From assembly GCA_022360095.1 (NCBI GenBank), contig JAKSDK010000795.1, forward strand, positions 1-53,333: 53,333 bases of DNA, given 5' to 3'. This document shows, piece after piece, positions 1 through 5,102 of this stretch. The notes beneath the pieces are model-generated. The model was not told where the DNA came from, did not search any database, and saw only the letters and a list, made by a program, of their open reading frames with translations. Origin of the DNA: Phycisphaerales bacterium. GTDB taxonomy: Bacteria; Planctomycetota; Phycisphaerae; UBA1845; UTPLA1. The position numbers and the translations under genes are program-made. Numbering within the stretch: position 1 is the stretch's first letter; every line of letters begins with the position of its first letter.

Positions 1-124
1 GGAATCCTTTCCTGTCTTTTGCTCGCTCCAGCTATGCACGTTTTTGTTCTCCGCAACGAATACATGGGAAGTGATTCCCATGGAGATGGGACCGAGAAAG
101 GATTCTCGGTCCAGCACAGCATAG

Positions 125-547
125 TTACCAATCTGTACAGTCATCAAATGTCGATAGTGGTGCCGTGTTCCCTTCAAATCCTTTAGAGAGCAAAAGCGAT
201 TCGACTTTCTTCGCGAAATCCAGATCGATTTTTATGGAACCGAACTGCAAATGCACGATATATTTTCTTTCGGACAACCACATTGACTGAAGTGATACCA
301 TCGCCTTATCTTTTTTGATGGTCAAAAAAATAGATTGGAAATCGCTTGGCGTGTCTTTCTGCGTAGTGTAGTTTACGATTTCGATCTCTGCATCAAGAGA
401 TTCGAGAATCGAGGGCCAACTGCCGAGAAACTCATGAGGGAGGTTGAAACCCCTGCCGAGACGTTTGAATGGTACGCGTTTTTTATTCATCTTGGTTAGA
501 ATCCAATAATGCCCCTCAGTATCTCCCTGAGCATAACTTTGAAACAA
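125..547 (-). CDS. Hypothetical small protein directly downstream of the Rhs toxin C-terminus; putative cognate immunity protein. An in-frame ATG at 490 (MNKKRVPF...) is a likely alternative start that would not overlap the toxin stop at 496.
   Basis: ORF track (140 aa). It sits on the same strand immediately 3' of the Rhs CT domain. The region is strikingly AT-rich relative to the rest of the window. No recognisable family. Confidence 0.4.
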   Translation of the reverse strand: MFQSYAQGDTEGHYWILTKMNKKRVPFKRLGRGFNLPHEFLGSWPSILESLDAEIEIVNYTTQKDTPSDFQSIFLTIKKDKAMVSLQSMWLSERKYIVHLQFGSIKIDLDFAKKVESLLLSKGFEGNTAPLSTFDDCTDW

Positions 548-2594
548 CTACCCGTACAGAGCGCACCTGCACCAGACACTCTGCCAGTAAACAAAGCTGG
601 GATTGGAATTCCTTGAAACCAGCGAGGGGCCCAACCAGATGCTGCAAGAGCAATTCTACCGTAGAAGGGATTCCCGAAAAACCAAGTCGGTCGCAAGCCG
701 ACACCGTAGAAAAACGATCCTCCTCGATAACCCATCCACATAACACCTGGCGACAAACACGGTGCACCGAATTGAAAAGCCAAGCCCGCGCCGATGACAA
801 CAGTGCCCGCCTTACCAACTGCGATGAGTTGCTCTTCGTTCAGTTTCGTCGTTGCTAACGCCCACCGGTCCCACCAGATATCAGGAGCCAGTCCCGATGG
901 ATCGACATTCATCGCAGGTGAATTATCAATGTATACGTAAACATTTGCTCCACCTTTGATCCCGATAGGATCGCGCTGCATAAAACGTCCAGAGTAAGGA
1001 TCATAGTAGCGCGCCCCAACGTGCAACCAGCCGAGTTCAGCCAAGGGGTCGCACCAGCCACTGCCGGAAAGGCCGCCGCTGTTGTAGCAACCTGCCGATT
1101 GGTAGCCATACGCGCCTACGTAGCCGTAACGAGAATCAACGCTGCCTTGCGAATTCAAACGCTCGCCGAATGCGGAGTAGGCGACTTCTTGTAGAATTGG
1201 CGGATTGCCTACATCACTGCCGAGGATTTGTCGTGTGCTGCCGATCTGGTTGTCGGCAATATAGGCTGGCATATCGGTCTCACTCGGATCGGCGAAGCCG
1301 AGCTCGGAGAGATACGCTGTGCCTTCTGTCACTACGCCGTTGGAATCGACGGTGTAGTCGCTGTAGATGTCGTCGCCGAGATACTCTCGCCATTGCGCAC
1401 CGGGCAGAACGGCGAAGTTGTCGTTCGGATCGCGCGGGCGAATCATGTAACGCTGGCGACCGGATTGGTGACGATACTCGGCAGCGCCGTCCCAGACGAC
1501 ATTGGTCAGGTCGCCTGTGACCGAGTCGTAGTTGCCCGATCCGGAAACGGCCAGCCAGAGCTGGCCCGACGTGGTGTAATAGAACCAATAGGCGCGCGTT
1601 TCCGGTGTTGGCTGCAATGTTTCTTGCACCAGCCGGGCGATGTTGCCTTCGGCGCCGTAGAGATACCATCTCCGTTCGATCGTCTCGCCCGTGAAGGCCA
1701 CGACGTCGGACGACAGCAGACGGTTGTTGTGCTGGTCACCGTCGTCGGGCTCGGTGATGTCGTAGTGGTAATAGGTCGTGTGCCCGGCGATGAAATTGGT
1801 CTTTGTTAAACGATTGCCGCCCTGGTCGTAGGTGTAGGCAAAGTCGTACGTCAGCGGCGCGCCGCGCATTTCGTAGACCAGCCGGTTGCGAAAGTCGTAT
1901 TCGAACAACCGCGTCTCGCTCGAACCCTGCGAATCCGTCTCGGTGATCGCCTCCAGTAAACCATCGGCCGTGTAAGTGTAGCCCAGTTGCAATTGGGTTT
2001 GTCCCGTTGCGCACTCTCGCCCTCAATGACGATCCCACCGGCATTCAGAACGGAACCGACCGAGATCGTCGGCCAGAAGGCCAGCGTCGTCTGGGCCAGC
2101 GGGTCCGGCGGATTCTCGGTTTCGCGACTCTGTTGGCCCCACTCGTCGTACTCGTATTCCGTGACCACGCCGTTCGGGCCCGTCACGCGATACACCTGAC
2201 CGTTCCAGTCGTCGGGATCAGAGCCGGTGAACTCGTTGGCGCCGTAATAGTCGATCGTCGTGACCGCTTCGAAGTTGCCGTAGCCGTCCGCCGGTTCGAT
2301 GATGCTGGTCGGGCTCGTGGGGTGATCGTTGTTCTCGTACCGAATCTCCACCAGCTTGAACGGATTGCTCGTGCCCGGCACGAGGTCGTCGGGCGGGGCC
2401 ATGGTTCGAAGGTTGTTCAACGCGTCGTAGGTGAAGGTCGTGACGTGACCCAGTTGCTGAAAAAAGACGCCCCGCCGTTCTCGGTGGAGAAGGCGAGGCG
2501 TGCGAGGGAGTGGTGAATCGGGCGCTACCGTAGAGGAGACAAAGAAATCACTCCTCACCATCGTCATGGGCGGGAGGAATGAAATAGCGTCCAC
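496..2594 (-). CDS. Rhs/YD-repeat polymorphic toxin fragment, an orphan rhs-CT module. It is split into two frames (ORFs 1851..2594 and 496..1992) by a frameshift near 2005-2025. No convincing translational start.
   Basis: Repeated YD motifs (TFTYDALNNL, VTEYEYDEWG, LTYDFAYTYDQGGN, YYHYDITEPDD). RHS core-end signature ...GARYYDPYSGRFMQRDPIGIKGG... is followed by a ~130-aa non-repetitive C-terminal tail. The two ORFs join in sense (..GGIVIEGE / GQTQLQLGYTY..) if one indel is assumed. The annotated N-terminus reads through a terminator hairpin at 2468-2497. Confidence 0.6.
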
Positions 2595-2677
2595 ACTCCG
2601 GACAACGGTTTTCGACCAAGCCTGTTAGATCGTATCCGCAGAAATAACAAGCGTTGGCCGATTTTGAAACTTTTCTC
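2461..2677. repeat. Copy A of a ~215-bp direct repeat, ~93% identical to 3040..3256. It holds the 3' end of a zinc-ribbon gene plus a near-perfect palindromic hairpin with a T-tract on the minus strand (a terminator-like element).
   Basis: Direct comparison of the two stretches. The hairpin core is gccccgccgttctcNgtggagaaggcgNggc. Confidence 0.8.
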
Positions 2678-2856
2678 GGGTAAAACCAAGACAACGCGAT
2701 TCCTGATAGCCCAAGAGCGACACTCATCACCCAACAAAGAATCCACGAGGTGCCAAGCTGGTGGCGAACGCTATATACCCACAAAGATCCAAAGACTCCG
2801 AGACCGACGAAGAAAACCAAGTATATCACCCTCGCGATGAGTAACAACGTCTTCAA
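2548..2856 (-). CDS. Small membrane protein with two predicted TM helices and a C-terminal zinc-ribbon (CYFCGYDLTGLVENRCPECG). Paralog of 3112..3456.
   Basis: ORF track. Hydrophobic N-terminal half. The C-terminal 36 aa are identical to those of ORF 3112..3456. Confidence 0.6.
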   Translation of the reverse strand: MKTLLLIARVIYLVFFVGLGVFGSLWVYSVRHQLGTSWILCWVMSVALGLSGIALSWFYPRKVSKSANACYFCGYDLTGLVENRCPECGRYFIPPAHDDGEE

Positions 2857-3039
2857 TGATTACCTCCTAAGGAGCGCCTTCAGGTTCGGAGGAGTCGTTT
2901 GATGAATTAAATTTACACTGCAAAGCGTATTGCGTGCTGAACCGCGAATCCTTTCTCGGTCTCTATGCGTCACAGGAATCTTTTCCTGATCGGTTTCCTC
3001 GCGACGGCGAATGCGCTCTCTTGAAGAAAGAGGCCCCGC

Positions 3040-3256
3040 CGTTCTCCGTGGAGAAGGCGGGGCGTGCGAGGGAGTGGTGAATCGGGTGCTACCGTAGAGG
3101 AGACGAAGAAATCATTCCTCACCATCATCATGGGCGGGAGGAATGAAATAGCGCCCACACTCCGGACAACGGTTCTCGACCAAGCCTGTTAGATCGTATC
3201 CGCAGAAATAACAAGCGTTGGCCGGTTTTGAAATCTTTTTCGGGTAGTTCCAAGTC
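3040..3256. repeat. Copy B of the ~215-bp direct repeat (see 2461..2677). Its hairpin at 3047-3075 is followed on the minus strand by tctttcttc.
   Basis: Direct sequence comparison. The ORF 2970..3158 (MGAISFLPPMMMVRNDFFVSSTVAPDSPLPRTPRLL...) mirrors the start of ORF 1851..2594 because both lie inside the repeat. Confidence 0.8.
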
Positions 3257-3456
3257 AATAATATTGCCAATATTCCTGGGATTGCTATCGCCCAGAGCAG
3301 CATAATCGAGATGGGCTTGATACCAAGGCTGTACTCCCAGATTGACGCGGCGATCAAACCGCCGATGGTGACAACAAGGTACGATGCCTTAACGATATGC
3401 GGCAGCATCCTCACTGGACGTCTCCTAAGGGGTATGTTCCAGTCCGGAGGAATCAT
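3112..3456 (-). CDS. Small membrane protein with two predicted TM helices and a C-terminal zinc-ribbon (CYFCGYDLTGLVENRCPECG). Its start overlaps the 3' end of the upstream secreted-protein gene.
   Basis: ORF track. Same architecture as 2548..2856 with a diverged N-terminus. It overlaps gene 3425..4828 by 32 nt. Confidence 0.6.
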   Translation of the reverse strand: MIPPDWNIPLRRRPVRMLPHIVKASYLVVTIGGLIAASIWEYSLGIKPISIMLLWAIAIPGILAILLTWNYPKKISKPANACYFCGYDLTGLVENRCPECGRYFIPPAHDDGEE

Positions 3457-4828
3457 CAGGTGAATTACAGTTTATACTGCAAGGTATGTCACCGTCGCAC
3501 GGGCATTCCAGTGCGGTCACGCATGCACACCAATTCTGCTGTATTTGATCCAGCAATTCTTGTAGCGCCTCCGAAAGCCGGTCGATTTTCTTTTGCGCCT
3601 CTTTGATAGCAATTTCGGTCAGGTCCTTGGCTTCCGCCTTTGCGTCGGCGATTGTGATTTCTGCAAGCGCCGTGGCTGCATACATGGCAATAGCATAGGT
3701 GGCCGCCGCCGTCACGGCGCAACCAATCGCTGCCCACTGACCTACAGGTGGGGGGATGAGCAAAAATCTTCCGCAAACACCTGTAGCTACAACCCACGCC
3801 AATGTTGCGGCTAACATTTGCATTTCCATTGTCTTCAATGCTGTATTGATCTTCCGATCGCGCGCTCGATTTATCTTTTCCCGTTCCAGCTTGAGATCCT
3901 CATTGATGTCATCTACGGCCTCATTGTAATCCTCCCACGCTTTGTTCTCCGCTTGGGCAGAATTATTATGGCAGTCATCGCAGTCTACTGAGTTTGGGAT
4001 CGCAAGGATATCATCAATGGCGTCGAGCAAGTCGGCCACTGAGGACGGCTGAAAATCGATATCATCGGACGGCGCCTGTTGATCGCCATCGTCGGCAGCC
4101 TGTTCCGGTTCGTCGGGAATCTCGATGAGATCCTGGAAGAGAACGCCGCACTGATCGACTTGGCCCTGGATCAGAAGATACGACACACTCGTGCCTGTCT
4201 CTGCGTCGATTCCATGTGTCGCTTCGCCGTAGATCGAAAGCTCGGCCGTCCCGGTGGAGATCGTGCCGCCGACCTGGGCCTTGGAAACCTGGTCTGCTTC
4301 GATTAGCTCCGCGTAGTCTTCCTCGGATATCGCGTTGTCCGTCAATGATTGAATAAGTTGGCTGGCCGTCGCAGTGTCCTCCACCAGATCGGAGACCTCG
4401 GCGATGAGCAATTGCTGCTCGACTGATCCAGCGATGAGCTGTCGAAGATTGACGGGCCGGTAGGTCGTGATCTCCAGCGTGAACGCGAAGCCGTGTCGCG
4501 TTGTCCCCTGGTAGACACCGTTGCCGGTCACCGGGTCATTCAACGGAAAGAGGAGGTCCCGATCGGCGTAGTTTGGAAGCTCCGTGTCCGGGTCAACATA
4601 ATCCATCCACGGTTCATCGACGCCGAAGAGTGTCTTGAAGATGTCCCGTTGTTCGTCGAGATAGGTCCAGTTTTCAGAAAGCTGTGAATAGTCTGTGTTC
4701 TCGCAAATCGGAACGGCGTCTCCGGGGGTGAACGAAAGCGGCTGGTCTCCTAGCACCACGACAGGCGTCCACAACATCAGGATCATACATAAGACGGCGG
4801 TTGCTTTTTGGTTGAATCTTTGAATCAT
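3425..4828 (-). CDS. Secreted/membrane hypothetical protein. It has a signal peptide, an acidic linker, coiled-coil segments, two TM helices and a Cys-rich C-terminus.
   Basis: The ORF track gives 3425..5047. The start is refined to ATG 4828 (MIQRFNQKATAVLCMILMLWTPVVVLG = signal peptide), preceded by AAGGAGA 7 nt upstream on the minus strand. Confidence 0.6.
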   Translation of the reverse strand: MIQRFNQKATAVLCMILMLWTPVVVLGDQPLSFTPGDAVPICENTDYSQLSENWTYLDEQRDIFKTLFGVDEPWMDYVDPDTELPNYADRDLLFPLNDPVTGNGVYQGTTRHGFAFTLEITTYRPVNLRQLIAGSVEQQLLIAEVSDLVEDTATASQLIQSLTDNAISEEDYAELIEADQVSKAQVGGTISTGTAELSIYGEATHGIDAETGTSVSYLLIQGQVDQCGVLFQDLIEIPDEPEQAADDGDQQAPSDDIDFQPSSVADLLDAIDDILAIPNSVDCDDCHNNSAQAENKAWEDYNEAVDDINEDLKLEREKINRARDRKINTALKTMEMQMLAATLAWVVATGVCGRFLLIPPPVGQWAAIGCAVTAAATYAIAMYAATALAEITIADAKAEAKDLTEIAIKEAQKKIDRLSEALQELLDQIQQNWCACVTALECPCDGDIPCSINCNSPDDSSGLEHTP

Positions 4829-5102
4829 CTCTTTCTCCTTCGTTTCACTTTCCTTAGAAATGCACCGCATTGTCCAATTCTTTTTTGGTCCATCATCATG
4901 TGAATCCACTTGTGAACATGCCGACCCGATGAATACGGTTTTGATTGTCGTCGCGGAGTTCCGACCCGGATATAGACCAGAATAGACAATATAAGAGAAG
5001 AAATGCAAACACATTTTTTCTTGGATGTGCCATGCAGTGTGGCACACTTAGAGAAAAAACTTACAGAAATGATATTTTGATGTGGCGCGCGGACTTTGCG
5101 TT

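Follow-up and report, generated by a model that had tools for sequence, protein, structure and literature searches.

Organization of the locus

The window, that is the whole stretch of 53,333 nucleotides analysed here, which makes up an entire contig of a Phycisphaerales MAG, carries an Rhs module close to its first position, and all features of this module lie on the minus strand between 125 and 2457. Listed in the direction of transcription, the upstream-most feature is an ORF of 540 aa (5047..3425), followed by two small, paralogous membrane/zinc-ribbon genes (3456..3112 and 2856..2548) upstream of the Rhs remnant, all on the minus strand. A 237-nt repeat (2458..2694, minus strand), matching 3022-3258 at 92%, consists of the last 49 codons, i.e. 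the 3' end, of the zinc-ribbon gene together with its terminator. This intrinsic terminator of the upstream zinc-ribbon gene (2459..2501, minus strand; hairpin 2467-2501, U-run 2459-2466; dG -25.7 kcal/mol, z -4.85) is followed immediately by the Rhs remnant with its truncated 5' end.

The remnant comprises two core pieces. An internal piece of ~144 codons in the upstream frame (2026..2457, ~residues 496-652 of full-length relatives) is followed by a frame change at 2022..2031, which we interpret below as a deletion junction, and by a C-terminal core piece of 378 codons in the downstream frame (889..2022, ~residues 871-1306 of full-length relatives). The latter continues into a putative Rhs C-terminal toxin domain (CT) of 130 aa (499..888), which ends at the stop codon 498-496. 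A small ORF, the putative, rhsI-like immunity gene (125..490, 121 aa, ATG at 490), is intact. Directly downstream of it, at the contig end, lies a cut copy (1..117, minus strand) of a MITE-like element of ~159 nt with 28-nt terminal inverted repeats. A nearly identical metagenome contig (L002) continues 1.6 kb beyond the window edge and contains MITE-like repeats, a DUF2283 gene and another zinc-ribbon membrane protein. Scans of the window for Rfam families and tRNAs revealed nothing.

The upstream frame appears as an ORF of 247 aa (1851..2594) with a spurious open "N-terminus", which is read through the 237-nt repeat. An earlier reading of this DNA made from the sequence alone (the sequence-only reading) had derived the apparent N-terminus from a terminator hairpin within a 215-bp repeat. 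The source was correctly identified, the repeat being 237 nt long and not 215.

Rhs signatures and base composition

The identity of the remnant was examined with profile HMMs. YD repeats were recognized at ~2118-2204 by Pfam RHS_repeat (PF05593, E 2.4e-10) and by TIGR01643 (E 5.9e-6, above its cut-off). The core end was matched by TIGR03696 (Rhs_assc_core) with 62.8 bits (cut-off 32.5 bits; E 3.2e-17) over residues 318-368 of the 498-aa ORF, equivalent to 889-1041. This stretch contains GARYYDPYSGRFMQRDPIG...DPSGL, and the DPSGL autoproteolysis-type motif (PxxxxDPxGL type) at 889-903 marks the end of the core piece. HMM matches of the RHS/YD kind were thus obtained for both signatures, in agreement with the YD repeats and RHS core end that the sequence-only reading had claimed. 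As a member of the Rhs family the locus therefore has YD repeats and a core domain ending in a PxxxxDPxGL-type motif; it lacks a complete shell-forming core and an N-terminal export/plug region, and its two core pieces lie in different frames.

Altogether, ~144 and 378 core residues and the CT of 130 aa amount to ~650 aa, somewhat less than the ~700 aa estimated before. The predicted tail of ~130 aa proved to be exactly 130 aa after DPSGL, and the small ORF indeed starts 5 nt after the tail (stop 498-496, ATG 490).

The GC content is 58-62% in the core, 52.6% in the CT and 42.3% in the immunity gene, compared with a contig mean of 56.6% (sd 3.2%, 400-nt windows). GC3 falls along the gene from 0.82-0.87 at the 5' end to 0.43-0.55 in the tail and small ORF, the contig's other long ORFs having a value of 0.65. 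A GC-rich core joined to an AT-rich tip is the pattern described for enterobacterial rhs genes, and the gradient of the remnant matches this classical pattern. The drop in base composition across 1-900 noted from the sequence is hence real, although it is graded and not sharp.

The frame change is the scar of a large deletion

To delimit what is missing from the gene, the window was aligned by tblastn to FL6 and FL7, full-length relatives of 1536 aa (from the metagenome locus L006) and 1371 aa (from L007), and to the long partial sequences P0009, P0013 and P0014. Positions 2453-2028 match residues 496-652 of FL6 and positions 2031-883 match residues 871-1306, with equivalent results for the other four comparators. 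Relative to these proteins, ~495 N-terminal residues and ~200 internal residues are missing, and the retained pieces are out of frame. Rhs homology starts at 2453, only 1-5 nt past the end of the repeat and terminator, and this 5' boundary has no start codon. Within the junction region, positions 2025-2023 form a stop codon in the downstream frame.

Judged by the homologues, the frame change marks the place where a deletion has brought together, out of frame, two core pieces that are not adjacent in the relatives. A simple +1/-1 frameshift is excluded because ~200 codons are absent in comparison with the homologues, and a programmed frameshift was rejected for the same reason. The two pieces might alternatively stem from different genes fused at the junction, but GC3 shows no break there (0.82, then 0.75-0.82), which makes a deletion within one gene the simpler explanation. 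The frame switch that the sequence-only reading had placed near 2005-2025 is therefore present, at 2022-2031, but it is a deletion of ~200 codons rather than a frameshift.

Independent metagenome assemblies of different samples contain five contigs that are 99.9-100% identical to the window, and four of these (L001-L004) span both junctions. Of the four, three have the exact sequence of the window, and L002 shows 4 substitutions and no indel. Since four independent assemblies span both junctions, the structure is real and not a sequencing error. The proposal to re-sequence 1990-2030 as a check on the frameshift consequently leaves nothing to change, L001-L004 spanning this region without an indel. 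Nor is a continuous full-length ORF found, the junction being the same in all four assemblies.

L002 differs from the window by four SNPs in 3.95 kb. Three lie within the module, and all three are nonsynonymous and located in the upstream core piece (2026..2457); the chance of this placement is ~0.006 if SNPs are evenly spread. The clustering fits relaxed constraint on the upstream core piece, but an unseen paralogue may instead have introduced the SNPs by gene conversion.

The C-terminal domain and the downstream ORF are conserved as a pair

The CT is rich in Gly, Ala and aromatic residues (G 16%) and net basic, with a single hydrophobic stretch at ~residues 27-45, whose hydropathy peaks at 1.55, a borderline value for a transmembrane helix. 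The sequence-only reading had recognized no family for the toxin tail, and profile and sequence searches of Pfam, NCBIfam and PDB were likewise all blank. An AlphaFold model made from the single sequence was unusable (pLDDT 38). When the CT was searched exhaustively with phmmer against 1.84 billion representatives, one credible relative emerged, P0082 (E 8e-4, 34% pairwise identity over 85 aa), which likewise forms the C-terminus of an Rhs fragment. When a profile of these two sequences was applied to the collected Rhs matches, P0062 (44.7 bits) and P0032 (30.4 bits) were added. All three relatives found are thus Rhs C-termini. Scans of metagenome contigs and of genome contigs from species representatives, a set that evidently does not include the source MAG, gave no relatives.

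Two further matches were discarded. Yeast proteasome beta5 (E 0.0014), there the sole protein matched by the two-sequence profile, disappeared with the four-sequence profile. P0081 (E 1.6e-8) owes its score to 13-14 repeats in Ig-like ASH/DUF1573 domains, each contributing 1-4 bits.

In the four-member alignment of the CT twelve residues are invariant (F40, G48, G53, Y54, F59, W69, G72, P97, F100, G108, C115 and G126), and a conserved Asp, Glu or His of the kind expected in a hydrolase is absent. Because the domain is Gly/aromatic-rich, has no conserved acidic or His residues and has a partner predicted to be soluble, it may, as a weak inference from the sequence, be putatively non-enzymatic and perhaps membrane-interacting, neutralized by direct cytoplasmic binding of the partner.

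The product of the 121-aa ORF is identical to the NCBI protein MCG8406622.1 (MI923_15615) from a MAG labelled "Phycisphaerales bacterium". It has no signal peptide and no transmembrane or hydrophobic segment, and is hence predicted to be cytoplasmic and soluble. No match was found in Pfam or PDB. A low-confidence model shows the order helix, four strands, helix, with uninformative structural neighbours.

In all four loci that carry the CT (the window, L008, L009 and L010), the ORF directly following it is homologous, with a gap of 2-17 nt and a length of 110-121 aa. The homologues in L008, L009 and L010 are 22-34% identical to the ORF of the window and share the positions F-x2-P, WP, R-x-Y and A-x3-E; the invariant residues are F15, P18, W25, P26, R75, Y77, L81, A93 and E97. 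This co-occurrence of homologous CT and homologous downstream ORF gives comparative backing to the assignment as a putative immunity gene. Since two otherwise unmatched proteins are co-conserved in four diverged loci, sequence comparison provides good evidence that the CT and the 121-aa ORF constitute a genuine conserved cognate toxin/immunity pair.

All four family members found are located on Rhs C-termini from metagenomes, with at least 2 of them on orphans and no example seen on a full-length Rhs. By these searches the CT/immunity family appears very rare and undescribed. Tentatively, and at clearly less than even odds, the pair may represent a new toxin/immunity family of four members with a non-enzymatic mode of action, such as membrane insertion from inside or target binding, that is blocked by the soluble partner.

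Related orphan arrays and the search for a full-length partner

Apart from itself, the best matches of the downstream-frame ORF are only 41-54% identical in the core, and nearly all are 300-650 aa long. Inspection of the loci of such relatives in Planctomycetota metagenomes revealed arrays. In L006 three orphans of 561-574 aa, separated by small ORFs, lie behind the gene for an Rhs protein of 1536 aa, and L007, L009 and L010 carry similar arrays; the main rhs genes of the four arrays encode 1297-1536 aa. In L006, L007 and L009 the orphans have 1.3-1.5 kb of core in common with the main gene, at 78-92% nucleotide identity, the shared segment starting at main-gene residue ~820-900. In L010 no more than ~0.1-0.5 kb is shared. 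The two CT relatives P0062 and P0032 are members of such orphan arrays behind full-length rhs genes, and P0062 has 1.5 kb in common with its upstream main gene, at 92% nucleotide identity. Many CTs of related orphans are also Gly/Ala-rich. The intact core piece of the window begins ~30 codons inside the usual orphan boundary.

Precomputed Pfam listings of four full-length relatives contain no PAAR/VgrG-associated domain. FL6, FL7 and the L009 gene have a basic and then a hydrophobic stretch near the N-terminus, which is read as a putative signal peptide.

The window shares two features with orphan modules: a 5'-truncated fragment that retains core end and CT and is devoid of initiation signals, and a small cognate ORF that follows the CT after 5 nt. 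A third, a position downstream of a full-length rhs sharing the core, was not found in the contig, in the 1.6 kb beyond it or through the protein database. The search for such a full-length gene, suggested by the sequence-only reading, came up empty in the 53-kb contig and in the 1.6 kb beyond its end, where no other Rhs-like sequence of any kind is present, and among 5.8 billion protein clusters no partner exceeds 54% identity in the core. A main rhs may be located elsewhere in the genome, which the MAG does not cover completely; only 124 nt of contig remain beyond the immunity gene.

A probable vestigial orphan rhs-CT/rhsI module

Taken together, we regard the locus as a vestigial orphan rhs-CT/rhsI module of a Phycisphaerales genome, with a probability of about 0.7. 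An Rhs polymorphic-toxin gene would have been stripped of ~495 codons at its 5' end, the region that specifies the putative signal peptide and the N-terminal portion of the YD shell in relatives, and in addition of ~200 internal codons, out of frame. Left over would be the two core pieces, an intact core end with the DPxGL cleavage motif, the intact 130-aa tip and the intact 121-aa cognate immunity gene. Since there is no start codon at the 5' boundary, a terminator lies upstream, the export region is absent and the shell is incomplete, the Rhs toxin is presumably neither made nor delivered. A simple E. coli-type consensus, which may not fit Phycisphaerae, predicted no sigma-70-like promoter on the minus strand of 490-2460. 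The immunity gene would be the sole part likely to work and would protect against relatives delivering the same CT, and, should the genome contain a homologous full-length rhs at another site, the intact core piece of 1.1 kb together with the CT could donate sequence for C-terminal displacement. As a point against the vestigial reading, neither the CT nor the immunity gene shows damage and more than 500 codons of the downstream frame remain open, so that decay is limited or recent. The central proposal of the sequence-only reading, namely that a C-terminal piece of an Rhs gene lies silent here without a start of its own, tipped by a polymorphic domain and followed by an immunity gene, is thus supported by the HMM matches, the 5' boundary and the co-conserved ORF. 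Between the two fates it had offered, an orphan cassette in need of recombination and a decaying pseudogene, the evidence leans to the latter, with neither a full-length rhs nor a partner above 54% identity found.

The first of these fates nevertheless has to be weighed. A maintained orphan would serve as a functional reserve and be expressed once the core piece 889-2022 recombines with a full-length rhs, replacing its tip and immunity gene. This core piece spans nearly the segment shared in the related arrays (start ~820-840 there, ~871 here), P0062 from the same CT family shares its 1.5 kb at 92% nucleotide identity with the upstream main gene, the downstream frame, CT and immunity gene of the window are undamaged, and orphan reservoirs have been discussed (PMC3150448). 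However, a full-length rhs is found neither within 53 kb upstream nor within 1.6 kb downstream, and the best core match among the 5.8 billion protein clusters, at 48-54%, is too diverged for homologous recombination. Moreover, because the upstream core piece is separated by the out-of-frame deletion, the crossover would have to fall downstream of ~2022 for the product to be in frame. We consider such a reserve function unlikely. Less probable by a wide step is a type II TA-like pair, in which an internal promoter and start (e.g. TTG 1992 or ATG 1869) would produce a cytoplasmic Rhs fragment or the CT along with the immunity protein. Salmonella rhs-CT/rhsI modules, an orphan included, do have internal promoters and TA-like behaviour (PMC7043789); in the window the downstream frame is open from 2022, with gene callers placing starts inside it (products of 457 and 470 aa), and the immunity protein is predicted to be cytoplasmic. 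Against this, the minus strand of 490-2460 contains no promoter-like site of the E. coli-type consensus, and inspection by eye revealed no obvious ribosome-binding-like sequence before TTG 1992.

The locus lies at a contig end and beside repeats, where a chimeric MAG contig or a base-calling indel might have disrupted a gene that is in reality continuous. Yet L001-L004, from separate samples, span both junctions, three at 100% and one at 99.9% identity and without an indel, and the gap relative to homologues is ~200 codons and not one base. An assembly artefact is accordingly highly improbable.

The vestigial module documents the orphan-cassette arrangement, GC signature and decay path of Rhs toxins in Phycisphaerae, and illustrates how a large deletion may pass for a frameshift. 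Its most useful product are the four co-conserved CT/immunity pairs, which are candidates for a new toxic activity.

Comparison with known systems

Orphan rhs-CT/rhsI modules and their proposed roles have been described in Enterobacteria, where orphan immunity genes are proposed to be useful and where C-terminal displacement has been described for rhs and cdi loci (PMC3150448). By analogy, the core sharing between orphans and main gene in L006, L007 and L009 would be the classical substrate for such displacement. The module of the window resembles the orphans of Dickeya, Yersinia, Salmonella and E. coli (PMC3150448, PMC7043789) in its 5' truncation, partial core, DPxGL boundary and polymorphic CT, as well as in the lack of translation initiation signals and the small immunity ORF within a few bases. 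The retained upstream core of enterobacterial orphans can also carry disruptions, one Yersinia orphan having an in-frame stop within it (PMC3150448). In contrast to these orphans, the module is not adjacent to a full-length rhs, has an out-of-frame internal deletion of ~200 codons, abuts the terminator of an unrelated gene and resides in a MAG of the Phycisphaerales (Planctomycetota). A further difference concerns its full-length relatives, with a putative signal peptide on FL6, FL7 and the L009 gene and no PAAR/VgrG domain listed for the four examined.

The Planctomycetota metagenome arrays (L006, L007, L009 and L010) are the closest sequence relatives and retain a similar extent of core, and P0062 and P0032 carry the CT/immunity family of the window. 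Their orphans are arranged in tandem behind a main gene, whereas the copy in the window is solitary and further damaged.

Small Gly-rich or membrane-targeting polymorphic toxin tips, the glycine-zipper-type CTs, exist. The CT of the window resembles them in composition only (16% Gly, aromatics, one hydrophobic stretch, no conserved catalytic-type residues); it differs in having no sequence or profile match to described families and a hydropathy peak, 1.55, that is borderline. A soluble immunity partner is unusual for pore-forming toxins, and the predicted solubility of the immunity protein thus sets the pair apart from pore-forming CTs. As a pseudogenized polymorphic-toxin remnant, the element is of a well-known kind; new are only its CT/immunity family and the phylum in which it occurs.

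Composition and strain variation of the Rhs core

The DPxGL boundary separates the Rhs core from the C-terminal toxin tip (CT), and the fall in GC3 sets in some 400-600 nt upstream of it (window 1480-900). Because of this early onset, the low-GC and presumably exchanged segment may extend beyond the tip alone and reach ~130-200 codons back into the core. A comparison of the window with L002, a matching metagenome contig representing a second strain, revealed that three of the four SNPs lie close together in the upstream core piece, all within a 122-nt stretch (window 2078, 2113 and 2200). All three are nonsynonymous (G>D, N>T and F>V). Such a cluster could reflect relaxed constraint, or it could be a conversion tract derived from an unseen rhs paralogue.

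Repeats and genes flanking the Rhs remnant

Past the immunity gene, on its downstream side, the genes are flanked by copies of a MITE-like element of ~159 nt, with 28-nt terminal inverted repeats (GTGCTGGACCGAGAATCCTTTCTCGGTC). Copies were located at window 1-117 and 2934-2990, and at 3832-3990, 4375-4535 and 5350-5431 of L002. The MAG contig breaks inside this element, as do several metagenome contigs, and the element had no match in Rfam.

A family of small membrane proteins, closed by a zinc-ribbon motif (CxxCGYDLxG...CPECG), is encoded at L002 4599-5348 and, on the minus strand of the window, at 2548-2856, 3112-3456 and ~35637. The 3' ends of the two copies adjoining the Rhs remnant are 92% identical over 237 nt, terminator included, and this suggests gene conversion or a partial duplication. 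No member of the family was seen in the related Rhs arrays L006 and L007. An ORF of 540 aa (467 aa by gene callers) occupies window 3425-5047, minus strand. Judged by eye, its N-terminus resembles a signal peptide, the middle is strongly acidic and the C-terminal region is hydrophobic and possibly helical; no family matched convincingly, the hits to DUF6847 and PspM scoring under their cut-offs.

Toxin tips and arrays in related Planctomycetota

Several of the related Planctomycetota Rhs fragments (P0002, P0017, P0038, P0053, P0071 and others) have as toxin tips short hydrophobic tails, strongly Gly/Ala-rich (up to 50% Gly+Ala), which are not recognisable enzyme domains. In L009 (12233-13534 and 9758-11259), a metagenome contig with a related array, a DDE transposase is located between orphan modules. 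The L009 orphan carrying the CT family of the window has 1.5 kb in common with the upstream main rhs, at 92% nucleotide identity, a ready substrate for recombination.
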